From Escherichia phage SKA64, in the sequence record OM362897.1: DNA of 64,000 nt. One strand, 5' to 3'. The notes beneath the pieces are model-generated. The model had not been told where the DNA came from, did no database searches, and saw only the letters and a list, made by a program, of their open reading frames with translations. The translations under genes and the position numbers were made by a program. Positions 1,652-13,631 of the stretch are shown piece by piece (within the stretch, counting starts at the first letter, position 1; each line of letters begins with the position of its first letter).

Positions 1652-1670
1652 GATTTACCTCTTTATTGAC

Positions 1671-1691: not shown

Positions 1692-1698
1692 TCATTAA

Positions 1699-1869: not shown

Positions 1870-1890
1870 GATTTGTTTCTCTTCTGTTGT

Positions 1891-1914
1891 GAGCGGTGGA
1901 CCATTCCGCCGCTC
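1891..1914 (-). promoter_or_regulatory. PeSL-like 5' leader stem-loop
   Basis: GAGCGGTGG-ACCATT-CCGCCGCTC hairpin. Confidence 0.5.
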
Positions 1915-1954
1915 TATGTAATAAACTTTACTACGTTGTTTGCCTACTGTCAAA

Positions 1955-2239
1955 TTATTTTTTAATGTTTTGCCCTACAAAATTGATCACTTCCTTAAGC
2001 TGTCTCTCTGTCATGATCGTACCTGGTAACTCTTCTTTAATTTCTTCTGGTAAATAGATATTACCGCGCCAGGTTAACAAACAACCGTTTTGATCTTCGC
2101 AGATAGAATAAGAAAACATCCACTCGCAATCATTCTCAAGCTCCCAAAAACACAAAAAGTCTTCTTTCCCTAAGTTTTCAACGGTTAAGCATAATCCGCG
2201 ACGTGCTGCATAATTAGTTAGGCTTTTTGTAATTTTCAT
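1955..2239 (-). CDS. hypothetical protein (94 aa)
   Basis: track ORF trimmed to ATG at 2237-2239 (upstream extension translates hairpin). Confidence 0.5.
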   Translation of the reverse strand: MKITKSLTNYAARRGLCLTVENLGKEDFLCFWELENDCEWMFSYSICEDQNGCLLTWRGNIYLPEEIKEELPGTIMTERQLKEVINFVGQNIKK

Positions 2240-2260
2240 GATTTTTCTCTCTTCTTGTGA

Positions 2261-2276
2261 GCGGCACCATTGCCGC
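2261..2276 (-). promoter_or_regulatory. PeSL-like 5' leader stem-loop
   Basis: GCGGC-ACCATT-GCCGC hairpin. Confidence 0.55.
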
Positions 2277-2288
2277 CCTACAAGATAC

Positions 2289-2316
2289 ATATTATCAGAC
2301 TACGCGGACTTGTCAA
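2289..2316 (-). promoter_or_regulatory. sigma70-like promoter (minus strand)
   Basis: minus-strand TTGACA-N16-TAATAT. Confidence 0.55.
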
Positions 2317-2317
2317 A

Positions 2318-2428
2318 CTATTTTTTCTTTTTCTTTGCTTCCAACCGTCTAAGGTTACGGCTTGACTTATTGCGCAAGGCGCTTAGATCGTCGTACCCTT
2401 TCCATGCTTGCATATCTTTCGGATTCAT
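2318..2428 (-). CDS. small lysine-rich basic peptide (36 aa, ends KKKKK)
   Basis: AAGGGGG RBS 5 nt before ATG; C-terminal part of track ORF 2318..2590. Confidence 0.35.
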   Translation of the reverse strand: MNPKDMQAWKGYDDLSALRNKSSRNLRRLEAKKKKK

Positions 2429-2438
2429 GTTATCCCCC

Positions 2439-2717
2439 TTAACGATTATAAACATTATGGATGGCTTCAAAGGCAAGATGACCATAAGCCGCCAAATCGG
2501 GATTGATCCAAGCGTTATCCAACATCGTTTCAAGGACTGTGGAATCATCGTATAAAGCATCATAGAAATCTGCACGGATGATCGTTTCAATGTCGTCCGG
2601 TGTTAGTTTGTCGTTCAACTTGCACACTGTTTCAACGTCAACACCAATTTTCCAATTTTGTAAATTAGTGGTTAACATTGTTTTCATTTCTTCGGTTGTT
2701 AATTTAACGATGGTCAT
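2439..2717 (-). CDS. hypothetical protein (92 aa)
   Basis: ORF track; AAGAGAGAAA RBS-like; own promoter-hairpin cassette. Confidence 0.6.
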   Translation of the reverse strand: MTIVKLTTEEMKTMLTTNLQNWKIGVDVETVCKLNDKLTPDDIETIIRADFYDALYDDSTVLETMLDNAWINPDLAAYGHLAFEAIHNVYNR

Positions 2718-2738
2718 GATTTTTTCTCTCTTCTGTTA

Positions 2739-2760
2739 GGCGGGGCGCTTGTCGCCCCTA
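2739..2760 (-). promoter_or_regulatory. PeSL-like 5' leader stem-loop
   Basis: GGGGCG-CTTGT-CGCCCC hairpin. Confidence 0.55.
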
Positions 2761-2768
2761 TGTGATAC

Positions 2769-2796
2769 ATCTTATCAGGTTGATTCAGCTTGTCAA
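2769..2796 (-). promoter_or_regulatory. sigma70-like promoter (minus strand)
   Basis: minus-strand TTGACA-N16-TAAGAT. Confidence 0.55.
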
Positions 2797-2797
2797 A

Positions 2798-2959
2798 CTA
2801 TTTGTTAGCCGGATTATATGCCAGGACCGCGCCGCTTGCTTTCACACTTTCCGCTTCATAGTTGCGCAGATCGTTTTCTGTAAGATTGAGCGCGATCACT
2901 TCCTCGACTTCAACGCCAGCGACAAGGGCGATCTCTTTGATAATGTCTGTTATTTTCAT
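2798..2959 (-). CDS. hypothetical protein (53 aa)
   Basis: track ORF trimmed to ATG at 2957-2959 with AAGGTG RBS. Confidence 0.5.
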   Translation of the reverse strand: MKITDIIKEIALVAGVEVEEVIALNLTENDLRNYEAESVKASGAVLAYNPANK

Positions 2960-2969
2960 GGTGTGCACC

Positions 2970-3089
2970 TTATAAGATGATTGATAAGATAGTGACAACG
3001 AAAGCGATTATACTGATGGCAAATGTCATCTTTTTACCTTCGGATACTGCCGGATTCTCTACCGTGTATTCTACTGTGTACTTGCTCAT
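2970..3089 (-). CDS. small membrane peptide (39 aa, ...FAISIIAFVVTILSIIL)
   Basis: hand-translated; GAGAGGA RBS; stop overlaps RBS of next gene; paralogous to 7448..7552. Confidence 0.45.
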   Translation of the reverse strand: MSKYTVEYTVENPAVSEGKKMTFAISIIAFVVTILSIIL

Positions 3090-3112
3090 CGTGTAATCCT
3101 CTCGTTTGCTTT

Positions 3113-3125
3113 GGGAACTATTCCC
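3113..3125 (-). promoter_or_regulatory. PeSL-like 5' leader stem-loop
   Basis: GGGAA-CTA-TTCCC hairpin; minus-strand TTGCAA-N16-TATATT upstream. Confidence 0.45.
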
Positions 3126-3186
3126 GCCGCCCTATGAATTAAATATACACTATCTCAAAATGATTGCAAGCCTTTTTCTAAATTAT

Positions 3187-3471
3187 TTATGCAGTAAACA
3201 AACCATCATTTACAACGGCGGCGATGATCTCCCGTGCCATTGATTCAGGGAAAGGGGCGCTATAGTCCTGGCTTGTCTCATCGGTATCAGTGATCCAATG
3301 ATAAGCTAACGAGTAAAAGCCTTTACTAACTGTTTTCAGTGAGATGATGATCACTCGGTCAAGCTTATTGGTGAATGTTGCCGTTAATGTGTTACCATCC
3401 TGCGTCATGTTGGACAAGTAAGCGGGATCATTAATCAGGGAAAACATTAGCACGGTGTTAGCTTTACTCAT
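3187..3471 (-). CDS. hypothetical protein (94 aa)
   Basis: track ORF 3187..3501 trimmed to ATG at 3469-3471 (GAGGA RBS); extension overlaps hairpin. Confidence 0.5.
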   Translation of the reverse strand: MSKANTVLMFSLINDPAYLSNMTQDGNTLTATFTNKLDRVIIISLKTVSKGFYSLAYHWITDTDETSQDYSAPFPESMAREIIAAVVNDGLFTA

Positions 3472-3490
3472 GATTGCATCCTCAAAGGGG

Positions 3491-3508
3491 CGCGGCACCA
3501 TTGCCGCC
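3491..3508 (-). promoter_or_regulatory. PeSL-like 5' leader stem-loop
   Basis: GCGGC-ACCATT-GCCGC hairpin. Confidence 0.55.
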
Positions 3509-3518
3509 CTACACGATA

Positions 3519-3546
3519 ACTATAACACAATATAAAACAGGATCAA
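3519..3546 (-). promoter_or_regulatory. sigma70-like promoter (minus strand)
   Basis: minus-strand TTGATC-N16-TATAGT. Confidence 0.5.
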
Positions 3547-3749
3547 CCTTTATTTTTCCACGGTGTCAGCTTGTTAATCATTGGTGATAAATAGCGTTTA
3601 CCAACGTAAAACAGCACGCCAACTGATGCAACGGCGGCGATCTCATGCATAGCCGACGGGAAACGGGTATCATAATAAGATCCAATAATAGCAATAGCGG
3701 CAACGGCTGCAACGTCGATAATGATTTTTTCTTGTTTTGCGGTGATCAT
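3543..3749 (-). CDS. small membrane protein (68 aa)
   Basis: track ORF trimmed to ATG at 3747-3749; hydrophobic stretches AAVAAIAIIG and AAVASVGVLFYVG. Confidence 0.5.
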   Translation of the reverse strand: MITAKQEKIIIDVAAVAAIAIIGSYYDTRFPSAMHEIAAVASVGVLFYVGKRYLSPMINKLTPWKNKG

Positions 3750-3771
3750 AATATTTACCTTTTTGTATGGT

Positions 3772-3788
3772 GGGGGAACTATTCCCCG
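3772..3788 (-). promoter_or_regulatory. PeSL-like 5' leader stem-loop
   Basis: GGGGAA-CTA-TTCCCC hairpin. Confidence 0.5.
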
Positions 3789-3835
3789 CCTGATGTAATA
3801 CAGTTTAACAGGTCCGGTTATGGTGTCAACCACTT

Positions 3836-4021
3836 TTAAAGATATTTTATACTGATAACGTTTTCCGGTTTAACCTTGTTGTGATGTGCATCAACATAGA
3901 TCAAACCATCGTCAGAAAAGCCCAGGATCACGCCCTGCGCGATAAAACCGTATTCGTCACGGTAACGCACGGCTATTTTTAATGTTGCGTTGTAGGCTGT
4001 TTTAAGCTCGTTTAAAGTCAT
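3836..4021 (-). CDS. hypothetical protein (61 aa)
   Basis: ORF track; GAGGA RBS. Confidence 0.55.
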   Translation of the reverse strand: MTLNELKTAYNATLKIAVRYRDEYGFIAQGVILGFSDDGLIYVDAHHNKVKPENVISIKYL

Positions 4022-4040
4022 TTTTGTTTATCCTCTACAT

Positions 4041-4069
4041 GTAAAAAGAAAGGGCGCTTGGTGCGCCCT
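4041..4069 (-). terminator. rho-independent terminator candidate (minus strand)
   Basis: AGGGCGC-TTGGT-GCGCCCT hairpin followed on minus strand by TTCTTTTTAC. Confidence 0.45.
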
Positions 4070-4076
4070 TGTTATG

Positions 4077-4223
4077 TTAATTCTCTAAATCCATCCAATT
4101 ATATTTGTCACTCTTCCCGCGCTTTGTTTTATTGCGCTTGTCGCCTTTGCGGATCACTTCCTCATTCCAGGCCTTGCGGATCTTGGAAGATTGAATTTTT
4201 TCTGCACGATTAGATGTATTCAT
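4077..4223 (-). CDS. small basic protein (48 aa, Lys/Arg-rich)
   Basis: hand-translated; AAAGAGGAAA RBS; followed by terminator-like hairpin. Confidence 0.4.
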   Translation of the reverse strand: MNTSNRAEKIQSSKIRKAWNEEVIRKGDKRNKTKRGKSDKYNWMDLEN

Positions 4224-4242
4224 TTTGTTTCCTCTTTATATG

Positions 4243-4260
4243 AGCGGCACCATTGCCGCT
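4243..4260 (-). promoter_or_regulatory. PeSL-like 5' leader stem-loop
   Basis: AGCGGC-ACCATT-GCCGCT hairpin; minus-strand TTGACA upstream at 4291-4296. Confidence 0.5.
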
Positions 4261-4302
4261 ATATTATTAATTTAAACTGTTTTGTAAAATTGTCAAGGTT
4301 TA

Positions 4303-4656
4303 TCATTCATAAGAGCAAGCAAGGATCACGCCTGCAATATAAAGCCAATAATTTTCCCTTTCTCGTTGGATTTTATCATCGCTGCTATTCTCTTTAATGT
4401 ATCCCCAGGATGTTAACAAGCGATCAATTTCCCAATATTCGAAAGCGATATTAATATCTGATGGCAAACCTTGTAACCATGATGCTATTGCTCTGATAAT
4501 GTTATGATCGTAACGTTTTTGGTTATCGGTATACCAATACTCGGATTTAAAACAGCGCATCAATTCCGCGATCTTCTCTTTATCTTCTGTGATGCCATAC
4601 TTGCTATAATCAATTGAGGCCAGAATATAAAGTTTAATTGCATTTTGTGCTTTCAT
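4303..4656 (-). CDS. hypothetical protein (117 aa)
   Basis: ORF track; AGAAGAGAGA RBS-like. Confidence 0.6.
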   Translation of the reverse strand: MKAQNAIKLYILASIDYSKYGITEDKEKIAELMRCFKSEYWYTDNQKRYDHNIIRAIASWLQGLPSDINIAFEYWEIDRLLTSWGYIKENSSDDKIQRERENYWLYIAGVILACSYE

Positions 4657-4677
4657 GGTGTCTCTCTTCTGTTGTTG

Positions 4678-4694
4678 GCGGCACCATTGCCGCC
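4678..4694 (-). promoter_or_regulatory. PeSL-like 5' leader stem-loop
   Basis: GGCGGC-ACCATT-GCCGCC hairpin. Confidence 0.55.
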
Positions 4695-4733
4695 CTACTT
4701 GTTACATCTTACTGGATTTTTAAAACTTGTCAA

Positions 4734-4955
4734 TCATTTTTCTACTATCATTTGATACCCTGTTTCAACGTTAGAAAACACTGTTATCCCGTCCTGGCGT
4801 TCACTCATTAACATACAAGGCGCTAACATCCTTTCTACTGCCTTGCACTCGTTGTAAACGGCGGTTATATCTCCTGCTGCCTTGTCTTCTGTAGTAAATG
4901 TCTCATTTACGTAAACTTGACCAGCGACAACGGCGACAATAGCGAAAGTGATCAT
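4734..4955 (-). CDS. hypothetical protein (73 aa, N-terminus MITFA)
   Basis: ORF track; AAGGAAA RBS; first 18 nt identical to start of 5029..5196. Confidence 0.55.
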   Translation of the reverse strand: MITFAIVAVVAGQVYVNETFTTEDKAAGDITAVYNECKAVERMLAPCMLMSERQDGITVFSNVETGYQMIVEK

Positions 4956-4989
4956 GATGTTTCCTTGTTAGTAGTGGTTTCTCTTCTCT

Positions 4990-5012
4990 ATAGCGCCCAT
5001 TATAGGCGCTAT
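4990..5012 (-). promoter_or_regulatory. leader stem-loop (variant)
   Basis: AGCGCC-CATTAT-AGGCGCT hairpin upstream of 4955. Confidence 0.4.
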
Positions 5013-5028
5013 AACGAAAAGTCAACTA

Positions 5029-5196
5029 TTATTTTTTAAGGCTTAAAGTGCCTAGCTTATCAGCGTGACGCAGACCAGGGAAGATCCATTTTCCTGATTC
5101 ATCTTTCACCGGGGCTTTAAAAGTAGCGCCCAGGTTGGCGGCGTTAACTTTACGTGCAACGTTGCGAGCGGCTTCACGGGTAGCGAAAGTGATCAT
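5029..5196 (-). CDS. hypothetical protein (55 aa, N-terminus MITFATREAA)
   Basis: hand-translated; GAGGAAAA RBS; below ORF-track cutoff. Confidence 0.45.
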   Translation of the reverse strand: MITFATREAARNVARKVNAANLGATFKAPVKDESGKWIFPGLRHADKLGTLSLKK

Positions 5197-5220
5197 GATA
5201 TTTTCCTCTTCTCTTTGTTA

Positions 5221-5242
5221 GGCGGTGGACCATTCCGCCGCC
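5221..5242 (-). promoter_or_regulatory. PeSL-like 5' leader stem-loop
   Basis: GGCGGTGG-ACCATT-CCGCCGCC hairpin. Confidence 0.5.
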
Positions 5243-5288
5243 TTGATGTAATACAGTTTACTTTATTTTTGCAGTATTGCAAGCGGTT

Positions 5289-5504
5289 TTATGAAATAAA
5301 TGTCAAAGTAAAATCATAATCTTTTGACAGTTTATATTGCACCTTGTTACCGTATATGTCACCTTTACGTAAAGATCCACGGATACCGATAACATCCTTC
5401 ACGTCTTTTAAATTTTTCACGCCTGTAATGTCTTTGTTGAAATACTCGTCATCTGAAAATAAAACTTGCTTTGCATTTTTTAACAAGGTGCGGATATTAG
5501 CCAT
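5289..5504 (-). CDS. hypothetical protein (71 aa)
   Basis: track ORF trimmed to ATG at 5502-5504. Confidence 0.5.
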   Translation of the reverse strand: MANIRTLLKNAKQVLFSDDEYFNKDITGVKNLKDVKDVIGIRGSLRKGDIYGNKVQYKLSKDYDFTLTFIS

Positions 5505-5525
5505 TTTGATAATCTCTCTTACTAG

Positions 5526-5545
5526 GGGCGGCAATAGTGCCGCCC
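5526..5545 (-). promoter_or_regulatory. PeSL-like 5' leader stem-loop
   Basis: GGGCGGC-AATAGT-GCCGCCC hairpin. Confidence 0.5.
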
Positions 5546-5591
5546 TATGAATTACATTTTACTAATTTTAGTTGTCTTGTCAATATTATTT

Positions 5592-5819
5592 TTAGTTTAA
5601 TTGATCCAGGCATAACAGACGATCAACGTTGAGATCGGTCAGGCTAATCGTTGGCACCTGGTAGGATTCGATGTACTCAACGCTCGACCATTGCCCAAAG
5701 TTAGCGACCGCCCAGCTATTCAATGAGGAGTGAAGATCATCCCCTTTCTTCTCGGTGATAACTGCTACTACCTGGGAGATTCCAACCGTGCCGGATACGC
5801 GAACAATAACGATAGCCAT
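5592..5819 (-). CDS. hypothetical protein (75 aa)
   Basis: ORF track; AAAGG RBS. Confidence 0.55.
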   Translation of the reverse strand: MAIVIVRVSGTVGISQVVAVITEKKGDDLHSSLNSWAVANFGQWSSVEYIESYQVPTISLTDLNVDRLLCLDQLN

Positions 5820-5841
5820 AATGATAACCTTTCTTTGATTT

Positions 5842-5862
5842 GGCGGGAAACCATTTCCCGCC
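5842..5862 (-). promoter_or_regulatory. PeSL-like 5' leader stem-loop
   Basis: GGCGGGAAA-CCA-TTTCCCGCC hairpin. Confidence 0.5.
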
Positions 5863-5910
5863 CTATGCGATAAACTACACCAGATTAAAAAACGTTGTCA
5901 ACTGCTTTTA

Positions 5911-6150
5911 TTACATTCCTACCATAGCGGCACGGATTGCAGTTTTACTATACTTGAAACCATCAGGTGTATGAGTGATTCCATCCTGTTTTAATCTGTA
6001 GCACATCAGATCCGCCGCTTTATCTTTATTGCCGCACTCATTTATTAAACCTACAGCGTATAAGTATAACGATTCATCATTATTAATCCAAAGGCTTACA
6101 TTCCAATGAGTTTTATTTTTGTGACCGTTGTACATTTTAGATTTAGCCAT
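5911..6150 (-). CDS. hypothetical protein (79 aa)
   Basis: ORF track. Confidence 0.55.
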   Translation of the reverse strand: MAKSKMYNGHKNKTHWNVSLWINNDESLYLYAVGLINECGNKDKAADLMCYRLKQDGITHTPDGFKYSKTAIRAAMVGM

Positions 6151-6171
6151 GATGTTAATCTCTTTTTCAGT

Positions 6172-6193
6172 GAGGCGGGAACTATTCCCGCTC
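6172..6193 (-). promoter_or_regulatory. PeSL-like 5' leader stem-loop
   Basis: GCGGGAA-CTA-TTCCCGC hairpin. Confidence 0.5.
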
Positions 6194-6238
6194 TCGATAT
6201 AAGTATTATATGCTTTTTATTCGTGCTGTCAATGCTTT

Positions 6239-6604
6239 TTATAAATCTTTTTTACGTTTTACATCGCTTGCATGACTGTATACAGCGATCCCATTATCAC
6301 GGCAAAAGCGGGAAAGGTAGGCATAATTTGAAAACTCTTTACCTTCCAGGTTGATAACCTTGCTAAACTCTTCTAGGGCGACGGTATCAAAATGATCACC
6401 ATAGCCATATTGAAACGGAACGTTAACCACCTCGATCAGTTTACCGCCGATCTCAACGTCAACCATTAAAGAAAAATATGTATTACCGTAGGACCGTTGA
6501 AACCAGCGACGGGCGCTAATATGCACCGCCTCAATGCTGGATAATTCAATTTTAGCCGTGTTAGCCAGGGTAGCATAAGCGGAAACATTAATATTAATAG
6601 CCAT
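6239..6604 (-). CDS. hypothetical protein (121 aa)
   Basis: track ORF; start moved to ATG at 6602-6604 which has AAAGG RBS. Confidence 0.5.
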   Translation of the reverse strand: MAININVSAYATLANTAKIELSSIEAVHISARRWFQRSYGNTYFSLMVDVEIGGKLIEVVNVPFQYGYGDHFDTVALEEFSKVINLEGKEFSNYAYLSRFCRDNGIAVYSHASDVKRKKDL

Positions 6605-6626
6605 GATGATAACCTTTTTCATTGTT

Positions 6627-6647
6627 GGCGGGAAACCACTTCCCGCC
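6627..6647 (-). promoter_or_regulatory. PeSL-like 5' leader stem-loop
   Basis: GGCGGGAA-ACCAC-TTCCCGCC hairpin. Confidence 0.5.
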
Positions 6648-6692
6648 CTATGTGGTAAACTATACTAGAATTTTAAACAATGTCAACCGTTT

Positions 6693-7055
6693 TTATTCGT
6701 AAATTTTACCGCTTTCAGCCCATACCATAACGCGGCGCATACTATCCCAAGTGTTTTGATCCAGGTTTAAGCCGTGCAACTCTTCGGTACTTTCCAGACC
6801 AGGTACCGCCTTGTTGTAAGTCGCATATAAGCGCCCTTGATACTCATACGCCAGAGTAAGATCCGTTTGAATCATCTTTTTAAGCATAGCATTAAGCATC
6901 ATATTAGCGGCATGTTGATCACGTTTTAGCGGTAACATATCAATAAAGGCGCGATAAGCTGAAACATGAATATCAACCGTTTCACGTGGTAAATTTTTCA
7001 TGTCATCGCGGAAAGATACCAGATTAAACATGATAGTATTGATTTGCTTGCTCAT
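6693..7055 (-). CDS. hypothetical protein (120 aa)
   Basis: track ORF trimmed to ATG at 7053-7055 with AAAGGG RBS. Confidence 0.5.
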   Translation of the reverse strand: MSKQINTIMFNLVSFRDDMKNLPRETVDIHVSAYRAFIDMLPLKRDQHAANMMLNAMLKKMIQTDLTLAYEYQGRLYATYNKAVPGLESTEELHGLNLDQNTWDSMRRVMVWAESGKIYE

Positions 7056-7076
7056 TGTGTTACCCTTTTTTGTTTT

Positions 7077-7098
7077 GGCGGGGAAGTATTCCACCGCC
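7077..7098 (-). promoter_or_regulatory. PeSL-like 5' leader stem-loop
   Basis: GGCGGGGAA-GTA-TTCCACCGCC hairpin. Confidence 0.5.
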
Positions 7099-7155
7099 CT
7101 ATGTGTTACATCTTATCAGATTAAAAAACGTTGTCAAGAATATTTTTAGATAATT

Positions 7156-7437
7156 TTAACTGTATGATCCACATCGTTCGCAGTAGTGATCATCGTCGTC
7201 ATCAGCTACCTGGCTGATAAAGTGATCTACTTTTGCTTTTAGGTTATTATAATTATTTTCTACTTCCTTTAATCGCTCCTGATAGTATCCCAGGGCTTCA
7301 ATATACGCCGCCTCTTCTGTTTTTTCACGCATGGCTAAATTCATGCCGCGCGTATCATCATACAGCCAAAAACCATCGGTGCACTCACTCATTGAAAGGG
7401 TAGGGCTTAACTCTTTATGATTAATTACCTTGCTCAT
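7156..7437 (-). CDS. hypothetical protein (93 aa, C-terminal CERCGSYS)
   Basis: track ORF trimmed to ATG at 7435-7437 with AAGG RBS. Confidence 0.5.
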   Translation of the reverse strand: MSKVINHKELSPTLSMSECTDGFWLYDDTRGMNLAMREKTEEAAYIEALGYYQERLKEVENNYNNLKAKVDHFISQVADDDDDHYCERCGSYS

Positions 7438-7447
7438 AGTGTGCGCC

Positions 7448-7552
7448 TTATAGAATGATTGAAACAACAATTGCTACAGTGATCCACACTGGAACGGCTA
7501 ACAAAATAGCGTTAATCGTTCCAACCGTCAAACTATTTTCTTTATTAATCAT
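7448..7552 (-). CDS. small membrane peptide (34 aa, ...VWITVAIVVSIIL)
   Basis: hand-translated; AGAGG RBS; paralog of 2970..3089 with the same downstream junction. Confidence 0.45.
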   Translation of the reverse strand: MINKENSLTVGTINAILLAVPVWITVAIVVSIIL

Positions 7553-7579
7553 TGTAAGCCTCTTGCATAATTTCACTAT

Positions 7580-7599
7580 GAGCGGCACCATTGCCGCCC
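7580..7599 (-). promoter_or_regulatory. PeSL-like 5' leader stem-loop
   Basis: GCGGC-ACCATT-GCCGC hairpin. Confidence 0.55.
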
Positions 7600-7634
7600 T
7601 ACGTGGTAAATATTATGCCAGTGGCGGCGATATG

Positions 7635-8192
7635 TCAAAGACTATTTTCAAAGTTTTCTAGTGCGATCCTTTTTTCTTCCTCTGTTGGCTGATAATCAGG
7701 AAAAGCATCAACACACAACAACGGCGGGATCTCTTCGTACTCTTCCTCTTCCGTTGTCTCCTCGTCTTCCTCCTGGGCTATGGCTGCAATTTTGGCTAAT
7801 TTTCTTTCAGCTTGAATCAATTTACCATCAAGTACGTTTTTTGCCATATTGTAAGCGGTCCAGGTTATGCGCTTACTTTCTAATGCTTCCTCAAGCGCCG
7901 CTATCTTGCTGGGGTATTCATCCAGGACACGAAAAGCCGGATCAACTTTGTACAAAGGATTATCTTTCGCGCCGTCGCTCGCATCTTCCGCACTGGATAA
8001 ATCAGCGTTACCATTTGCCAGCCAGCCAGGGCGCACATAACGCGCTTTTACGTTGCCGTTACTACGTGCTAATCTGTTACCTATTTGCTCACCGCTATAT
8101 CCCGTGGATTCATCGATAAGATGATCGGTAATGATGCGCGGATCATCTGCTTCATGTTTTACCCAAGACTGGATCACATATTCGCGGCCCAT
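7635..8192 (-). CDS. hypothetical acidic protein (185 aa)
   Basis: ORF track; start set to ATG at 8190-8192 (AAGGTGG RBS 5 nt upstream); Glu/Asp-rich C-terminal region. Confidence 0.55.
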   Translation of the reverse strand: MGREYVIQSWVKHEADDPRIITDHLIDESTGYSGEQIGNRLARSNGNVKARYVRPGWLANGNADLSSAEDASDGAKDNPLYKVDPAFRVLDEYPSKIAALEEALESKRITWTAYNMAKNVLDGKLIQAERKLAKIAAIAQEEDEETTEEEEYEEIPPLLCVDAFPDYQPTEEEKRIALENFENSL

Positions 8193-8193
8193 A

Positions 8194-8451
8194 TTAACCA
8201 CCTTTTTTCAACAATTGGCATACTTTAAAAAGACTTGCTGAATCCTTGCAAGGGTAGAAAGATGTACGATAGTCACGTACGCCAACCTTGCGGATCTCGA
8301 TGTTCTCGCATGTTGTTTGATCAAAGATATTTATTTCATCATGCCCCCTTATATAAACATAGTGGGGATGTATTAACGCATATTTTGCTAATCTGTAAAA
8401 AGCGTTATCTTTGAACGCGATCACGTGACCTTTTAATTTGATGTAAAACAT
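8194..8451 (-). CDS. hypothetical protein (85 aa)
   Basis: ORF track; AAGGTGG RBS. Confidence 0.6.
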   Translation of the reverse strand: MFYIKLKGHVIAFKDNAFYRLAKYALIHPHYVYIRGHDEINIFDQTTCENIEIRKVGVRDYRTSFYPCKDSASLFKVCQLLKKGG

Positions 8452-8468
8452 TCTACCACCTTACAAAT

Positions 8469-8487
8469 AGCGGGAACTATTCCCGCT
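8469..8487 (-). promoter_or_regulatory. PeSL-like 5' leader stem-loop
   Basis: AGCGGGAA-CTA-TTCCCGCT hairpin. Confidence 0.5.
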
Positions 8488-8527
8488 TTATGTAACATAT
8501 TAACAAATTATTCGTTAATGTCAAGCC

Positions 8528-8800
8528 TTAAAGCAAAAACGCTACATCTTGCGCTTTTAGTGTAGTATCAACCATTTTCGGGCTTTTATAATCAACAAAG
8601 CGCGCGGTTTTTTCAATAGCGAAACCGAGATAATCTTGTTTATTGAATTTACATTCTTTCTTAAATGTTTCCCGCGCCACGGTGATCGCTGCGTCCAGGG
8701 ATAAACGCCCGTCAATGTTGATATTTGCGAAAGATCCGCCACCGCTCATAGGTTTACCAGTGGTGCCAGTTACGATCATTGTTGCGCTATATGATGCCAT
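8528..8800 (-). CDS. hypothetical protein (90 aa)
   Basis: ORF track; AAGAGAGAAA RBS-like. Confidence 0.55.
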   Translation of the reverse strand: MASYSATMIVTGTTGKPMSGGGSFANINIDGRLSLDAAITVARETFKKECKFNKQDYLGFAIEKTARFVDYKSPKMVDTTLKAQDVAFLL

Positions 8801-8821
8801 GATGATTTCTCTCTTCTGTTA

Positions 8822-8842
8822 GGCGGGGCGCTTGTCGCCCCT
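8822..8842 (-). promoter_or_regulatory. PeSL-like 5' leader stem-loop
   Basis: GGGGCG-CTTGT-CGCCCC hairpin, near-identical to copy at 2739-2760. Confidence 0.55.
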
Positions 8843-8884
8843 ATGTGATACATCTTATCAGGTTGTGGCTTGTTGTCAAGACTT

Positions 8885-9082
8885 TTATTCTATTCCTGCA
8901 ATCTGCTTAACGCGCTTGCATTTTGCAGTATGCTGATCTTCTGTAATTACTCCCATTTCTAACAGTGAATCAATGAAAGATAAAACCGTTTCATGATCAT
9001 CTTGGGGATGACTGAACTCAGTAAAACCGTTTACTATTACGTTGATTTGTCCAGCTTTCGCCACAATGTGCAATGTTGCCAT
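8885..9082 (-). CDS. hypothetical protein (65 aa)
   Basis: track ORF trimmed to ATG at 9080-9082 with GGAG RBS. Confidence 0.5.
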   Translation of the reverse strand: MATLHIVAKAGQINVIVNGFTEFSHPQDDHETVLSFIDSLLEMGVITEDQHTAKCKRVKQIAGIE

Positions 9083-9101
9083 GATCTTAACTCCAAATAG
9101 T

Positions 9102-9121
9102 GAGCGGCACCATTGCCGCCC
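9102..9121 (-). promoter_or_regulatory. PeSL-like 5' leader stem-loop
   Basis: GCGGC-ACCATT-GCCGC hairpin; minus-strand TTGACG-N17-TAATAT upstream. Confidence 0.55.
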
Positions 9122-9268
9122 TACGTGGTAAATATTATGCCGCCACCTGGCGAACGTCAACCACTTTTTCAATCTTTTTATTTTCTTTTTGCTTGCTATA
9201 TATAAAGGAAAGGGCTATCATCTTTCTACCGCGCCAACCAGGGCGCACAACAAAGAAAGGGCGACACC

Positions 9269-9535
9269 ATGACAAATACTACATTACACCTTATGCACTC
9301 ATTGGGCTGGCAAGGCGGCACGGTGCACCAGGTAGCAAGCGCAACGGGCTTAAAGGTTGAAACCGTTCTCAACCTATCAGATTATAAGGTCGAGGATAGT
9401 TATCAATTACAAAGTTACACGGGCGGTTTTACCTGGGCGCGTGAAGGTGGGAAAGAAAGCAATATACCACATTGGGGAAAAGGTGATATTCATTTTTGGC
9501 TAGGTGTCCTGACCTGGCAAGAAAACAAAAAATAA
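9269..9535 (+). CDS. hypothetical protein (88 aa)
   Basis: ORF track; AAAGGG 8 nt before ATG; isolated plus-strand gene. Confidence 0.45.
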   Translation: MTNTTLHLMHSLGWQGGTVHQVASATGLKVETVLNLSDYKVEDSYQLQSYTGGFTWAREGGKESNIPHWGKGDIHFWLGVLTWQENKK

Positions 9536-9537
9536 TC

Positions 9538-9566
9538 TTGACAAGCCCAGGGATCGGGCTTATACT
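9538..9566 (+). promoter_or_regulatory. consensus sigma70 promoter
   Basis: TTGACA-N17-TATACT; spacer is a GATC-centred palindrome AGCCCAGGGATCGGGCT. Confidence 0.65.
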
Positions 9567-9573
9567 GTTTTAC

Positions 9574-9790
9574 ATACAGAAGAGGAAGCGCCACCCCACG
9601 GCGTAAAGGCGGGGCTAACATACCAGGGGCACTGGTTGGAAGGTTGATCGCCGGTAGGCTGGGCGCTATATATTTGTAAAGAAATGTAAAGATAAAATAA
9701 TCGCTTGCTTTCCTGGGTGGATCTGTTATTCTTATTACATGGCGAGGGGACACGGGAGCGCGAGACAAACACCGCCCCTGCGCGTCATTC
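9574..9790 (+). ncRNA. candidate structured non-coding transcript (GC-rich leader)
   Basis: starts at consensus promoter; GC-rich islands with local hairpins (ACCAG-GGGCA-CTGGT at 9621-9635) in an AT-rich genome; no RBS-led ORF. Confidence 0.3.
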
Positions 9791-9797
9791 TCTAAAT

Positions 9798-9816
9798 GAG
9801 AATGATTATCATTTAC
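9798..9816. promoter_or_regulatory. Fur-box-like palindrome
   Basis: GAGAATGATTATCATTTAC matches 15 of 19 positions of GATAATGATAATCATTATC. Confidence 0.35.
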
Positions 9817-9855
9817 CTTATCAAATAAGAATCAATCTCATTTATAAACCTAAAT

Positions 9856-9874
9856 GCGAATCATTATCATTTGC
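9856..9874. promoter_or_regulatory. Fur-box-like palindrome (second copy)
   Basis: GCGAATCATTATCATTTGC; AAATGC...GCATTT inverted repeat. Confidence 0.3.
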
Positions 9875-9919
9875 ATTTCCATATGAGAACTCTTCTCATT
9901 CCCATCTGCATAAATTTTT

Positions 9920-9980
9920 GTAAACTTTAAATTTTGCTTTTGTACTTTCATTTTTGTAAAAGCAAAAAAACTTTAAATAC
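9920..9980. repeat. AT-rich direct repeat, copy 1
   Basis: about 58 bp, roughly 80% identical to 10058-10118. Confidence 0.55.
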
Positions 9981-10012
9981 TGTGGGCGCGCAAAATTTTT
10001 AAAATTTTCCTT

Positions 10013-10160
10013 GATTTTTGAGTTTTGTTTTGTATCTGACATTTTAAGATAATTTTCCTAAACTTTAAATTTTGGTTTTCAACTTTCACTTTTGTAAATT
10101 CTTAAAAAGTTTAAATAATTTGAGGGATTTTTGAGATAATAGGTAATGGGAATTTGAGAT
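10013..10160. repeat. iteron-like short repeats (GATTTTTGAG x3)
   Basis: GATTTTTGAG at 10013-10022 and 10126-10135, ATTTGAGAT at 10152-10160. Confidence 0.4.
10058..10118. repeat. AT-rich direct repeat, copy 2
   Basis: second copy of AAACTTTAAATTTTG...TTTTGTAAA...TTTAAATA block. Confidence 0.55.
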
Positions 10161-10246
10161 AACCTTTAATCTTATTGGCAGACCTTCAGGAACCCACTCA
10201 GATCGAATCCTAGTGATGCAAACTGAAAAAGACAAGGGTTTGTATA

Positions 10247-10296
10247 GGACAAAATAATAGGCTCTCTACGGTGCTGTAGGAGCCTTATTTCTGTGC
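10247..10296. terminator. bidirectional rho-independent terminator candidate
   Basis: AGGCTCTCTAC...GTAGGAGCCT hairpin (10259-10285) flanked by A-tract and T-tract; sits after minus-strand gene ending at 10341. Confidence 0.5.
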
Positions 10297-10340
10297 TACA
10301 AAGTGACGCCTTTGTTCTAAAAATGAAAAAAGTTAAAATA

Positions 10341-10883
10341 TCACAAATATCGTCTTTGCGGTATTTTGTCTGGGAAAAGTATTTCGATCAGTTTGTTATG
10401 ATATTTACCTAAAAGATTTTGCCCTTTCCAGTTGACCGGATTTAGCACCCCTGGTTCATACATTCCCATTCCAATACCGTAAACCTTATCGTAAGGACTT
10501 GCTTCAACAAACGTTTTGTATTGGTAAAGGTGTAAGTCTGCATACAAATCTGGATTCTGTACATATTTCAAGCATAAACCTCGCATAACAATACGCTCAC
10601 GGTTCTCTTCCCATACATTGTTATCAAAATCCGACACTGCCCTACCCATACGTTTGTAATAAGCCTGGATCTTCTCATCTTTCCGTATCAAACTATGAGT
10701 CAGAATAGCCTGTGCAGTGTTGTGATCATTAAAAAGCAAAGCTTTACGCCACATCATGTATTGTTCGACACAATTAAATGTCTGATTGTAACCTGGTTCG
10801 GTTTCTGTAAAGGGTGCAATATACCAATTACTAAAAACATCTTTATGTGAAAAGAAGAATACATAATCATCAGTTATTCGCAT
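10341..10883 (-). CDS. NADAR-domain protein (YbiA-like, putative ADP-ribose N-glycosidase)
   Basis: motifs FFFSHKDVFSNWY, EQYMMWRKALLF, YDKVYGIGMG resemble NADAR/YbiA family. Confidence 0.65.
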   Translation of the reverse strand: MRITDDYVFFFSHKDVFSNWYIAPFTETEPGYNQTFNCVEQYMMWRKALLFNDHNTAQAILTHSLIRKDEKIQAYYKRMGRAVSDFDNNVWEENRERIVMRGLCLKYVQNPDLYADLHLYQYKTFVEASPYDKVYGIGMGMYEPGVLNPVNWKGQNLLGKYHNKLIEILFPDKIPQRRYL

Positions 10884-11058
10884 TTTTCATACTCTCCAAA
10901 ATTTCACGTTGCCCTTGCTGATAGGCTTTCATCAGAACTACTTTAAGGTTTGTCTCCAAGAGGTCTTCATTGTAATTATACCGCTCCACAACATATGTCA
11001 ATTCATCATAAAGATCAAGAACGGGGTAGAATACAGGGTTATCTGCTAAACGTGCCAT
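10870..11058 (-). CDS. hypothetical protein (62 aa)
   Basis: track ORF trimmed to ATG with AAAGGAGAAA RBS. Confidence 0.5.
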   Translation of the reverse strand: MARLADNPVFYPVLDLYDELTYVVERYNYNEDLLETNLKVVLMKAYQQGQREILESMKNANN

Positions 11059-11071
11059 AGTTTCTCCTTTG

Positions 11072-11437
11072 TTAATCCATCCACCAGTAGCCATAAACTG
11101 CGTCTGCGTCGATGAGTTTGTGTTTGTTGTTCCGCATGTAGTCTAAGATAAGTAGACGTTTATTGTATCTGGAGAGATTATGACCCTCTTTTCCGCCATA
11201 GTCAAAATATTTTGCAAGATCTTTGCACTCAAACAAAATTAGTTCGGGAGTTTCTTCACACTGGTCTGTCTGGTACACTTGACGAATGATCATGTATACA
11301 TCATCGTCTTCCGCTAAATGCTCTACTGGTCCACATCCAGCAGGAACAAATTCATAGTCCCATCTGATCAGATGTTTCTCTACTGCTTCAAAGAAGTCCA
11401 TTCTTTCGTTGCGCATAATTTGAACGTCAACTAACAT
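11072..11437 (-). CDS. hypothetical protein (121 aa)
   Basis: ORF track; CAGGAGGAAAC RBS; start overlaps upstream stop. Confidence 0.6.
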   Translation of the reverse strand: MLVDVQIMRNERMDFFEAVEKHLIRWDYEFVPAGCGPVEHLAEDDDVYMIIRQVYQTDQCEETPELILFECKDLAKYFDYGGKEGHNLSRYNKRLLILDYMRNNKHKLIDADAVYGYWWMD

Positions 11438-12411
11438 GTTTCCTCCTGTAATATTCCACCATAAAGTTTATAAATGTTTTGTATTGATGCCATGCAAGAT
11501 AACTCTACTGTTTCTGTGTAGCCATCTGGCATAGCATATTTGCTCACTGCTTCCGTATCAAGAATACGCTTACAACGACTCTCTGCATCTTTGCACTGCT
11601 TAACAGTAGGGAAGTGCCACACTTGGTGTTGTTTCATAGTTAACACATTATGGCTATTTTGTTCTTTAATACGCCTATCGCTATCTTTAGTAATGCCAAA
11701 TTTCAAGGCACAGAGAACACCTTGTTCATCATAGACATAGTTAATGTAACATTGCTGTTGATTTTTGTTAGCACAATGCGGACAACCTTGACCCAGGTTT
11801 AATAAGCTATTAGCACTCCCTATATGCTCCCCGTGATCCTTACACCCATATTTAAACTTCCCTATTGATGAGGGTTTACTGATCCACTCTATCCAGATAT
11901 ATCCTTTACTTTCTAAACCTTTTCTCACTTTGTAGGTGATTTGTTCGTCTGTATAATGATAATTTTTAGAACAACGGCAAGGGAGACTCCCTCTTTTAAG
12001 GTTATTCCCTTGTGCATAAAACCTGCCATCACAGACGTGAGCTTGCACATATTCATCATGGGAACATTTAGGACATTCAACCATCCAGATAATACTCTTC
12101 CCTTTACGTTTGCCTGTATTGGTGAAGATAGTTCCAGGCTTAAACTTCCCTGTACTTATGAAATTTTGTATGTGCTGATTGTCTGGAATAGCTTTTGCTT
12201 TACTTATTTTATCATACACACAGGTAGGGCAACCAGTACCCCGTTTAAAGTTATAAAAACAGCATGTATTCCATTCATGACCATGACTACAACGTAGGAT
12301 CATCTTCGTATGCGCACCTTTAAACGGCTCTACGATACCTATAATGGTAATCCCCTTAGTTTCCGCTATTGGTTTACATTCTTCCATGTACTGTTCTAAC
12401 GTCTTTGCCAT
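11431..12411 (-). CDS. Zn-ribbon repeat protein with C-terminal GIY-YIG/T5orf172-like domain
   Basis: three CxxC/CxxH pairs; C-terminal YINYVYDEQG...KFGITKDSDRRIKE resembles GIY-YIG-like nuclease folds. Confidence 0.4.
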   Translation of the reverse strand: MAKTLEQYMEECKPIAETKGITIIGIVEPFKGAHTKMILRCSHGHEWNTCCFYNFKRGTGCPTCVYDKISKAKAIPDNQHIQNFISTGKFKPGTIFTNTGKRKGKSIIWMVECPKCSHDEYVQAHVCDGRFYAQGNNLKRGSLPCRCSKNYHYTDEQITYKVRKGLESKGYIWIEWISKPSSIGKFKYGCKDHGEHIGSANSLLNLGQGCPHCANKNQQQCYINYVYDEQGVLCALKFGITKDSDRRIKEQNSHNVLTMKQHQVWHFPTVKQCKDAESRCKRILDTEAVSKYAMPDGYTETVELSCMASIQNIYKLYGGILQEETC

Positions 12412-12440
12412 CTCTAACGATCCTCTCTCTCTATTAAACT

Positions 12441-12475
12441 AAAATCAATATAACAAAACCCGCCGAAGCGGGTTT
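12441..12475 (-). terminator. rho-independent terminator candidate (minus strand)
   Basis: AAACCCGC-CGAA-GCGGGTTT hairpin followed on minus strand by TGTTATATTGATTTT. Confidence 0.55.
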
Positions 12476-12491
12476 AATAAATCTCAACTTA

Positions 12492-13631
12492 TTAGAACAC
12501 GCTACCTAATGTGGTGGAACGTTGTGTTACAGGCTCCAGCACCACTCGCAGAGTGTTTCCTGGTGTAGTGCTCATCACCAGAATCTTACCACCTTCAATC
12601 AGATCACAAGTTAGACCATCAGCAGTTGCACATAGATCAATATGTGGATCACCATCTTCATCCAGGATAACATAACTGTTGGTTTCCATTGCTTCCACTT
12701 CATCATCTTTCAAACTTTGTAGATAGATGTTCAGGGAACAAGCACCCGACAAAAACTTAGTAGGGGTGAAGTCGTGCCAGTTATTGATCCAATTCACCTT
12801 CAAGGTTTTGCCATTAGCTACGATAGAAGCCACATTCCATTTAGCATCGTTCCCTAAAGAAATACCCATCATTTCAAGACATTCTTTAAAAGTCATTTTT
12901 GGATAGAAATTCAATTCTTCTACAATGCCTTGAATAACATCGAAAGACAACTCTGTGCTAACATCCCATAAACGTTGGAAGTTATCTACGTGCTTTTTAT
13001 TTACCAAGTTCTTATCCAAGTAATCTAACATAGTTTCACTAGACAGTTTATCGTAATTGAAACTGTAGTAGATACGACTAGGACGGTTTACAAAATATTC
13101 CGAGATATAGCCACTATTTTTAGTGAGGATGTAAAGTTTATTTCCACTTCCTGTTCCATCCAACAAGGTCAACAGTGCTTCCTGATCTTCTTTCTTAGCG
13201 TACACTTTATCAAACTCGTCAAATAAAACAACAGCACGATCTGTAATTTTACTCATAAATTCTAAGAATCCAGCGTCTGTGTAAGGCTGTGTCACCAAAA
13301 TGGTTGGAATACCTAAACCTTCTGTGGACATTAGGGACATGCTAATCAGTTTAGCTAACATCGTCTTACCACTGCCCTTTGTCCCTGTCAGTAACACCCC
13401 AGTATTTTTACCTTCTTTACTACGACGAGCAAATGTTTTAATAACATGTGCGGCGCGGTCTTTAGTTTCCCCATAAAGAGTGTTCGGAAGAGAGAAACTT
13501 TCGCCACGCACTAAAGAGTAGTTACCGTGCGGATCGCAGTTGACAACCCAAACTCCAGCAGGAAGTTTATTAGCTTCAACACCATATTCCTTATTTACAA
13601 CAGCCACATCTCCAAAAATAGTGTATTTCAT
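12492..13631 (-). CDS. AAA+ family ATPase
   Basis: Walker A GTKGSGKT, Walker B VVLFDEFDK; 379 aa. Confidence 0.65.
   Translation of the reverse strand: MKYTIFGDVAVVNKEYGVEANKLPAGVWVVNCDPHGNYSLVRGESFSLPNTLYGETKDRAAHVIKTFARRSKEGKNTGVLLTGTKGSGKTMLAKLISMSLMSTEGLGIPTILVTQPYTDAGFLEFMSKITDRAVVLFDEFDKVYAKKEDQEALLTLLDGTGSGNKLYILTKNSGYISEYFVNRPSRIYYSFNYDKLSSETMLDYLDKNLVNKKHVDNFQRLWDVSTELSFDVIQGIVEELNFYPKMTFKECLEMMGISLGNDAKWNVASIVANGKTLKVNWINNWHDFTPTKFLSGACSLNIYLQSLKDDEVEAMETNSYVILDEDGDPHIDLCATADGLTCDLIEGGKILVMSTTPGNTLRVVLEPVTQRSTTLGSVF

Follow-up and report, generated by a model that had tools for sequence, protein, structure and literature searches.

The window analyzed here comprises 64,000 nt of Escherichia phage SKA64 (OM362897.1), a Phapecoctavirus (phAPEC8-like E. 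coli myophage). Positions 10341–12411 hold four minus-strand ORFs, at 10341–10883 (180 aa), 10870–11094 (74 aa), 11072–11437 (121 aa), and 11431–12411 (326 aa); adjacent ORFs overlap, by 7–23 nt each. The preliminary description of this locus had read it as a 180-aa NADAR ORF co-oriented with two small ORFs and a Zn-ribbon/GIY-YIG-like protein, and all of these elements are present. Upstream of the four ORFs, on the same strand, lies a gene for an AAA+ ATPase (12492–13631, 379 aa; Pfam AAA, phrog_2376), which shows 100% amino acid identity within the genus and is 64% identical to bas60_0109 of Escherichia phage PaulScherrer (Bas60). It is the conserved upstream neighbor that defines synteny with Bas60, the order ATPase, CapR/T5orf172 endonuclease-like gene, NADAR being common to both phages. 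The ORF list, Pfam, and PADLOC yield no DarT-like ORF in or beside 10341–13631, and no ADP-ribose-related domain is found in the neighbors of NADAR with Pfam, PHROGs, or PADLOC.

The 180-aa product of 10341–10883 (minus strand) is a clear NADAR protein. The profile search proposed in the preliminary description matches PF08719 (DUF1768) with E = 1.8e-35 (123 bits vs. 35.1), covering profile positions 3–154 of 163; further matches are to phrog_1017 (E = 7e-52), PDB 8bau (E = 4e-15), and NCBIfam TIGR02464, "riboflavin biosynthesis intermediates N-glycosidase" (112.3 bits, cut-off 73.7), the latter being a domain-level equivalog model whose scope takes in much of the NADAR superfamily. The NCBIfam model "NADAR family anti-phage protein DS32_2" was considered and rejected, the protein being a non-member (16.5 bits vs. 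the cut-off of 240). The AF2 model (pLDDT 95.8, pTM 0.89) has significant Foldseek matches in the PDB to NADAR structures only, i.e., 8BAU, a NADAR–ADP-ribose crystal structure (TM 0.78, E = 9e-10), and YbiA, 2B3W (TM 0.69). The residues putatively involved in catalysis and ADP-ribose binding are E40, K47, R81, W91, R95, E127, D132, and Y135. The first seven of these correspond to E43, K50, R79, W89, R93, E125, and D130 of Pn NADAR, while W133 of the latter is replaced by Y135; the residues that bind ADP-ribose or are required for catalysis were identified by Schuller et al. (2023; PMC11543638). Across 63 homologues there is no variation at E40, K47, W91, E127, or D132, and at least 90% retain R81. 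Profile, fold, and active site thus all uphold the family assignment.

The NADAR gene occurs in 69 phage records with 87–100% amino acid identity and is under strong purifying selection (pN/pS 0–0.06 against four relatives). Its orthologues are labeled "GTP cyclohydrolase II" in several GenBank records and "hypothetical protein" in others. The former label is wrong: it has been carried over from RibA–NADAR fusion proteins, and the cyclohydrolase domain is absent here.

The two small ORFs differ in their conservation. The ORF at 10870–11094 (minus strand), listed with 74 aa, probably starts at 11058 and encodes 62 aa, since the match to phrog_22330 begins at residue 13 and the annotated length in relatives is 62 aa. 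Among the small genes it varies the most, with 64–97% amino acid identity to relatives and pN/pS values of up to 0.45. The 121-aa ORF at 11072–11437 (minus strand; phrog_24465) is strongly conserved (pN/pS 0–0.06) and is represented by only eight clusters among 5.8 billion proteins, in close relatives only. Its AF2 model, built on a shallow alignment, has a pLDDT of 65.8, and Foldseek against the PDB returns nothing below E = 0.8. Neither small ORF has an informative match in Pfam, PHROGs, PADLOC, or NCBIfam; an F-box-like match (E = 0.024) is at chance level and was discarded.

The 326-aa protein encoded at 11431–12411 (minus strand) resembles a homing endonuclease, with three DNA-binding CapR-type Zn-finger repeats and a C-terminal T5orf172/GIY-YIG-like domain (Pfam, PHROGs). 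CapR (PF21817) is matched in three stretches, 93.9 bits against the cut-off of 24.2, and the Cys/His motifs are C41/H43/H45–C61/C64, C113/C116–C145/C147, and C190/H193–C210/C213; there is also a sub-threshold match to the DUF4379 treble clef. The nuclease domain scores below threshold (MUG113, 18.8 bits, cut-off 22.3; T5orf172, 17.2 bits, cut-off 20), while T5orf172 is matched by four of five orthologues, with the best E = 6e-4. The invariant YIN (222–224), KFG (237–239), R246, and GYTE (297–300), read by eye, fit the T5orf172/GIY-YIG pattern. The protein further matches phrog_681 "endonuclease" (E = 3e-66) and putative homing endonucleases of ICP1 (E = 1e-18). Its gene shows 75–84% nucleotide identity to relatives, compared with 95–99% in the flanks; the CapR repeat copy number varies among orthologues, giving proteins of 326–467 aa. 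Each of the 11 relatives inspected has an endonuclease-like gene at this locus, with alleles of 37–77% amino acid identity. Sporadic presence or absence, or mobility, is not seen among these 11; it is the allele and the repeat number that vary instead. Most likely, the CapR/T5orf172 gene is an independent, fast-evolving element of the homing-endonuclease type with a predicted nuclease, and not the functional partner of NADAR. Quite unlikely, in our view, is a more active role than that of a passive selfish element, with the protein serving as a nuclease in an arms race or as a DNA binder that has been domesticated: rival alleles might be cut in mixed infection and the adjacent anti-DarT cassette (NADAR and the small ORFs) co-converted into competitors, or the protein might be a CapR-like regulator of the cassette. 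If true, the dynamics of homing endonucleases would be tied to how an anti-defense gene spreads and is maintained.

Terminator-like hairpins are found at both ends of the four genes. An intrinsic-terminator-like hairpin at 10259–10285 followed by a U-rich tail (10250–10285 in all, minus strand) lies 55 nt beyond the stop codon of the NADAR gene; the hairpin is followed by AUUAUUUUG, and the 61-nt stretch folds at -22.1 kcal/mol (z = -5.7, none of 200 shuffles as stable). The phAPEC8 record has a terminator annotated at the equivalent site, and this hairpin likely marks the end of a leftward transcription unit. A second hairpin, 12456–12475, with a U-rich tail (12446–12475, minus strand), separates the ATPase and endonuclease-like genes; its 8-bp stem is capped by a UUCG loop, and UUUUGUUAU follows (-12.7 kcal/mol, z = -2.8). 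Between this hairpin and the ATG at 12411 there is no sigma-70-like site, nor are promoter-like sites in excess across the region (15 vs. 13.9 in shuffles). What is annotated as the "PHIRE promoter" motif in phAPEC8 is a repeated hairpin rich in GC, which in the window occurs only at 9124 and below. The locus had been described as a small operon bounded by hairpins. Both hairpins exist, but we dropped the self-contained operon: because the upstream hairpin lies only 44 nt before the 326-aa ORF with no promoter-like site in between, the four genes seem to be the distal portion of a longer block of leftward genes that starts at approximately 16.6 kb. The 800-bp gene-free stretch 3' of the NADAR gene has no Rfam or tRNA match (Rfam run at the gathering threshold on the whole window and in E-value mode on 9000–10400, plus a tRNA scan).

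A second ADP-ribose enzyme had been suggested by the macro domain encoded 20 kb away, and the comparison with T4 supports this. The ORF (30213–30752, plus strand) encodes a macro-domain protein of the TARG1/DarG/SCO6735 class (Pfam, PDB, PADLOC) of 179 aa, or 157 aa if the start, for which both 30213 and 30279 are possible, is the latter. Pfam Macro is matched marginally (22.9–23.1 bits, cut-off 22); other matches are PDB 5e3b (E = 1e-12), TARG1 (E of about 4e-6), and, over the whole macro domain, PADLOC DarG (E = 6e-10). The gene stands within a run of HAD, ComF-like PRTase, macro, and TerC genes. The protein is 49% identical to the macro protein of Bas60 and 36% identical to Tk.4 (AdfM) of T4 (E = 1e-20), the only one for which thymine ADP-ribose hydrolysis and protection against DarTG2 are reported (in a preprint). 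On this resemblance it is a candidate AdfM-like thymine-ADP-ribose hydrolase, and probably would complement NADAR by protecting against thymine ADP-ribosylation (DarTG2), as T4 AdfM does; given the 36% identity to Tk.4, the phage probably carries both DarT counter-measures.

The reading that we favor, at a probability of roughly 70%, is that the 180-aa ORF encodes an orphan ADP-ribosylglycohydrolase of the NADAR family and AdfN class, which resembles an antitoxin and reverses DNA modification by DarT1. Upon infection of a DarTG1-carrying E. coli, DarT1 would ADP-ribosylate guanine N2 in the phage DNA and thereby block replication. The phage NADAR would bind the ADP-ribose moiety via K47, R81, W91, R95, and D132, while E40 and E127 would hydrolyze the N-glycosidic bond to the base; with unmodified DNA regained, phage replication could proceed. 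An anti-DarT role had already been proposed in the preliminary description, and it is supported because the syntenic counterpart AdfN^Bas60 (bas60_0111, identified from the GenBank annotation), 59% identical over 172 residues (E = 7e-69), has been shown experimentally to act against DarT1. Expressed ectopically, AdfN^Bas60 neutralizes DarT1 without other phage factors and restores plaquing of the DarTG1-sensitive phages RB69, T5, and Bas25 on DarTG1 hosts, with no effect on DarTG2 (PMC11825919, Nat Commun 2025). Removal of guanine ADP-ribose, neutralization of DarT1, and rescue of plaquing have been demonstrated only for the NADARs of Bas60, Bas32, and T4 (PMC11825919), and we found no direct test of DarTG on Phapecoctavirus in the literature on the two together. 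By analogy, the 180-aa NADAR would share the substrate and the in vivo effect of the validated AdfN^Bas60.

The natural target could also be broader or different, since NADARs act on ADP-ribose of RNA guanosine (PMC11833690), and cytidine ADP-ribose is removed by YbiA-type and other NADARs (PMC12945103). The 180-aa NADAR would then mainly reverse other ADP-ribosylation, i.e., of G or C in RNA or DNA by ARTs of other toxin or defense systems, or act on soluble ADP-ribose-derived signals, and its effect on DarT1 would be a side activity. The YbiA-type Glu127 counts in favor of such a substrate, and phage NADAR and macro proteins have been argued to target mostly soluble ADP-ribose derivatives (Iyer et al., 2022). 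However, the nearest tested relative, AdfN^Bas60, fully rescues from DarTG1, with a specificity for guanine over thymine (PMC11825919), no NADAR is known to counter an RNA-ART defense, and the window contains no pointer to a soluble substrate; we therefore regard this alternative as unlikely.

The overlapping reading frames, and the persistence of the endonuclease-like gene beside NADAR in two genera and at least 11 genomes, might indicate a single module in which the CapR/T5orf172 protein and the two small proteins target, regulate, or assist NADAR, e.g., as a DNA-binding recruiter or a cassette repressor, and PLE CapR provides a precedent for domestication of the CapR family as a repressor (PMC10448857). 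This seems very unlikely: AdfN^Bas60 works alone, both small ORFs are missing from Bas60, the neighbors lack ADP-ribose-related domains in Pfam, PHROGs, and PADLOC, and the endonuclease-like gene diverges far faster than its neighbors, which is what a selfish or arms-race nuclease would show. The least probable proposal, that of a YbiA-like housekeeping N-glycosidase acting on reactive riboflavin-pathway intermediates and tuning host metabolism rather than countering defense, could draw on the TIGR02464 match above the curated cut-off, on the 30% identity to E. coli YbiA with a shared catalytic Glu, and on the "GTP cyclohydrolase II" names, but the NADAR stands alone with no riboflavin gene or rib domain beside it in the ORF list, Pfam, or PHROGs, these names derive from RibA–NADAR fusions whose cyclohydrolase domain is missing here, YbiA itself also hydrolyzes G-ADPr (PMC11125620), and the authors who described the anti-DarT1 Bas60 counterpart put it outside the YbiA clade (PMC11825919).

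With reversal of DarT1 modification as the favored function of the 180-aa NADAR, the AdfN anti-DarTG1 class would extend to the whole genus Phapecoctavirus, whose phages are widely used as therapeutic and biocontrol candidates. NADAR together with the AdfM-like macro protein would predict resistance to DarTG1 as well as DarTG2, a point of relevance to the prediction of host range. The main value lies in mending the "GTP cyclohydrolase II" and "hypothetical protein" labels in relatives; no new mechanistic question is raised, because the chemistry, structure, and counter-defense role have been published for close relatives.

Among known systems, the endonuclease-like neighbor compares with the T5orf172 homing endonucleases of ICP1 and with PLE CapR, in which a T5orf172/GIY-YIG-like domain likewise comes after repeated DNA-binding CapR modules of the CxxC...CxC Zn-finger type; in both, the number of repeats varies and divergence is rapid (Barth et al., 2023). 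Unlike the ICP1/PLE genes, the copy in the window is below threshold for T5orf172, and the gene has a fixed locus in every relative inspected.

DarG1, the DarT1-associated NADAR antitoxin (E. coli C7, Geobacter lovleyi), has the same fold as the 180-aa protein and hydrolyzes N2-guanine ADP-ribose in DNA; its E88 and K95 are the counterparts of E40 and K47. DarG1 sits with the DarT1 toxin, whereas the phage NADAR is an orphan with no adjacent DarT1 gene. DarG1 is also longer (about 230 aa) and relies on Asp171 (E. coli C7) instead of the Glu of YbiA type, which the phage protein has as Glu127 (the position of E125 in Pn NADAR). Rescue in vivo by DarT1-linked NADARs requires a lysine specific to them, Lys115 of E. 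coli C7 NADAR. E. coli YbiA shares the fold and the type of catalytic Glu with the 180-aa NADAR, but is a chromosomal, LexA-regulated housekeeping gene. Cihlova et al. (2024; PMC11125620) showed that YbiA and T4 gp30.3 both hydrolyze G-ADPr in vitro but leave cells unprotected against DarT1; hence, conserved chemistry is no guarantee of anti-DarT1 activity in vivo.

AdfN^T4 (gp30.3) is also an orphan phage NADAR, which removes guanine ADP-ribose and counters DarTG1; T4 pairs it with the macro protein Tk.4/AdfM acting against DarTG2. AdfN^T4, however, is only 17% identical to the 180-aa NADAR in the alignment, has His at the position of Glu127, and works only in the T-even context, while the Bas60 type acts on unmodified DNA without other phage factors (PMC11825919); AdfN^T4 and Bas60-type NADARs were acquired independently.

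The closest system is AdfN^Bas60 itself. Bas60 belongs to Justusliebigvirus, a sister genus within the same subfamily, Stephanstirmvirinae, for which the anti-DarT1 function of NADAR is already published. The two proteins differ at 41% of positions, loop 27–35 is shorter and the C-terminal tail different in the 180-aa NADAR, and Phapecoctavirus has the two extra small ORFs between NADAR and the endonuclease-like gene; they share the catalytic residues and a clade-specific insertion that precedes the K(R/K)-x-GR motif.

The NADAR domain proposed in the preliminary description for the 180-aa minus-strand ORF (10341–10883) is borne out by a PF08719 match of 123 bits (cut-off 35.1). A sequence search links the protein to 8BAU, the crystal structure of a Phytophthora NADAR (E = 4e-15), and its AlphaFold2 model, made with 63 homologues as input (mean pLDDT 95.8), has only two significant PDB matches, ADP-ribose-bound 8BAU (TM 0.78) and YbiA of E. 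coli (TM 0.69). In the Phytophthora protein, ADP-ribose is contacted by E43, K50, R79, W89, R93, E125, D130, and W133, and hydrolysis of guanine-ADP-ribose depends on the residues equivalent to E43 and K50 and on the one at the E125 position (Schuller et al. 2023, PMC11543638). The corresponding residues here are E40, K47, R81, W91, R95, E127, D132, and Y135; all 63 homologues keep E40, K47, W91, E127, and D132, and at least 90% keep R81.

By nucleotide comparison, 71 phage records match the 3.9-kb stretch around the NADAR gene at 90–95% identity, nearly all of them Escherichia phages in Phapecoctavirus, the phAPEC8-like genus of subfamily Stephanstirmvirinae; hence, the window is a piece of a ~150-kb E. 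coli myophage genome. Substitution patterns indicate a functional NADAR gene under constraint, with 6–13 synonymous and 0–3 non-synonymous differences from four congeneric phages (pN/pS 0–0.06). The gene is found in 69 phage records at 87–100% amino acid identity, many of these orthologues being labeled 'GTP cyclohydrolase II' or 'hypothetical protein' (e.g., PQ571307, KX664695, MT496970). The protein has no cyclohydrolase domain; therefore, the former label is an annotation mis-transferred from RibA-NADAR fusion proteins.

The AdfN counter-defense class, its chemistry, structures, and one representative of the same subfamily are already published. T4 gp30.3 (AdfN), an orphan NADAR of the DarG1-like type, strips ADP-ribose installed by the DarT1 toxin off phage DNA (Johannesman, Carlson and LeRoux, Nat Commun 2025; PMC11825919). 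Two unrelated phage NADARs, AdfN^Bas32 and AdfN^Bas60, each neutralize DarT1 unaided; with either, RB69, T5, and Bas25 regain full titer on DarTG1 hosts, and DarTG2 is unaffected (PMC11825919). Bas60–62 are phi92-like phages, now Justusliebigvirus, a genus of the same subfamily as Phapecoctavirus. AdfN^Bas60 is bas60_0111, annotated as 'putative YbiA-like N-glycosidase'; it shares 59% identity (E = 7e-69) and a clade-specific insertion with the window protein. Gene order is also alike (AAA ATPase, 64% identical; CapR/T5orf172 protein, 55%; NADAR), so that the window gene corresponds in position to a validated AdfN.

This synteny with a DarT1-neutralizing protein supports the anti-DarT role suggested earlier. 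The best-supported mechanism is that the window NADAR would hydrolyze N2-guanine ADP-ribose on phage DNA, by which the phage would escape DarTG1; we infer its substrate as well as its effect in vivo. YbiA and T4 gp30.3 hydrolyzed guanine-linked ADP-ribose in vitro and did not rescue cells from DarT1 (Cihlova et al. 2024, PMC11125620), hence conserved chemistry alone is no proof of in vivo anti-DarT1 activity. A main role as a YbiA-type riboflavin-intermediate N-glycosidase is less probable: the protein scores 112 bits against NCBIfam TIGR02464 'riboflavin biosynthesis intermediates N-glycosidase' (cut-off 73.7) and carries the YbiA-type glutamate, but riboflavin context is absent around the gene, and the anti-DarT1 phenotype of the Bas60 protein speaks against it. 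The same phenotype argues against ADP-ribosylated RNA guanosine or cytidine as the main target, also of lower probability, although NADARs reverse guanosine ADP-ribosylation on RNA (PMC11833690) and cytidine ADP-ribosylation (PMC12945103). Iyer et al. (2022) favored the view that phage NADAR and macro proteins act on soluble ADP-ribose derivatives, which is likewise less probable as the main role here in light of that phenotype.

The NADAR ORF and three further minus-strand ORFs, encoding proteins of 326 aa (CapR/T5orf172 endonuclease-like, 11431–12411), 121 aa (11072–11437), and 74 aa (10870–11094), abut or overlap one another, and this ORF set agrees with the preliminary description. The 74-aa ORF probably starts at 11058 and encodes 62 aa, since the PHROG profile alignment begins at residue 13 and relatives are annotated with 62 aa. 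It is the most variable small gene. The 121-aa ORF is very narrowly distributed (8 clusters in the homologue search) and tightly conserved among congeners; profile and fold searches with it gave no informative match. As Bas60 lacks both small ORFs and AdfN^Bas60 acts alone, there is no evidence for any neighbor as a functional partner of NADAR. The upstream AAA+ ATPase (12492–13631) is 100% identical at the protein level in four congeners despite 6–12% synonymous divergence; its 64%-identical Bas60 homologue is annotated as 'FtsH-like protease', but no protease domain was detected.

Both hairpins said to bound a small operon exist. The one upstream of the 326-aa ORF (12456–12475) has a UUCG loop and a U-rich tail; the stronger one (10259–10285; z = −5.7) is followed by AUUAUUUUG and coincides with a terminator annotated in phAPEC8. 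However, the upstream hairpin lies just 44 nt from the ATG start codon of the 326-aa ORF, no promoter-like site was found in this gap, and the leftward gene run goes on as far as ~16.6 kb, where a divergent intergenic region has promoter-like sites on both strands. We thus reject a self-contained four-gene operon and take the genes to be the probable distal part of a longer leftward block, inside which the upstream hairpin would act as an attenuator. On the minus strand at 461–9124, the gaps between small leftward genes contain nine near-identical copies of a 20-nt GC-rich hairpin motif, GTAGGGCGGCAATGGTGCCG(CTC) (e.g., 9105–9124, 7583–7602, 4679–4698); these carry the annotation 'PHIRE promoters' in phAPEC8, and TTGACA/TAnAAT-like boxes precede some of the copies. 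Absence of the motif from the NADAR block suggests a different transcriptional class.

Directly downstream of the NADAR terminator lies a stretch of ~800 bp (9540–10340) that contains no credible ORF, gave no match in Rfam and tRNA searches, and is nevertheless 95–99% identical to relatives. It carries three ~29-nt direct units (9792–9900), each with inverted repeat TAAATGAGAATGATTATCATTT, and two 72-nt AT-rich repeats (9913–9984 and 10051–10122). One of these inverted repeats (9798–9816) matches 16 of 19 positions of the 19-bp E. coli Fur-box consensus (chance expectation 0.06). The stretch may have a regulatory or origin-like role, or may serve as a Fur-binding decoy.

A macro domain, previously proposed as a second ADP-ribose enzyme, is encoded on the plus strand at 30213–30752 (alternative start 30279). 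It passes Pfam Macro marginally and matches Streptomyces SCO6735 (5e3b; E = 1e-12), human TARG1, and, over the whole domain, the PADLOC DarG model (E = 6e-10), all consistent with that proposal. It is 36% identical (E = 1e-20) to T4 Tk.4, reported in a 2025 preprint to be AdfM, the factor that T4 requires on DarTG2 hosts; thus, this phage, like T4, probably encodes both guanine-specific and thymine-specific DNA de-ADP-ribosylases. The gene lies in a conserved run (28789–32040) of an HAD-like hydrolase (28789–29445), a ComF-like PRTase (29438–30265; PF15610, E = 8e-42), macro, a 73-aa ORF, and a TerC-family membrane protein (31066–32040), resembling Ter-associated 'nucleoside-like metabolite' modules; the first three genes are adjacent in Bas60 too. 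Given the HAD/PRTase/TerC context, the macro protein might process a ribosyl-phosphate metabolite instead of, or beside, ADP-ribosylated DNA.

The 326-aa protein, earlier called Zn-ribbon/GIY-YIG-like, has three CapR homology domains (PF21817, 93.9 bits) and a DUF4379 treble-clef match, with MUG113/T5orf172 matches only sub-threshold. Further matches are to phrog_681 'endonuclease' and, in Vibrio phage ICP1, to putative T5orf172 homing endonucleases (E = 1e-18). Its gene is a local divergence hot spot: nucleotide identity to four congeners is 75–84% over 11500–12500, compared with 95–99% in the flanks. Orthologue lengths vary with CapR repeat copy number (326, 332, 335, 394, and 467 aa), and alleles at this locus in other Phapecoctavirus genomes are down to 37% identical. 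Functional or evolutionary coupling of this fixed yet hypervariable gene to the anti-DarT cassette, by co-conversion in mixed infections or CapR-like regulation, seems unlikely. In T5orf172 homing endonucleases, CapR Zn-finger DNA-binding modules occur as repeats that recombine within the gene, and the sequences diverge rapidly (Barth et al. 2023, PMC10448857), exactly the architecture, repeat variation, and fast divergence seen here; unlike a typical free-standing homing endonuclease, however, the gene is constantly present at its locus, in all 11 relatives inspected.
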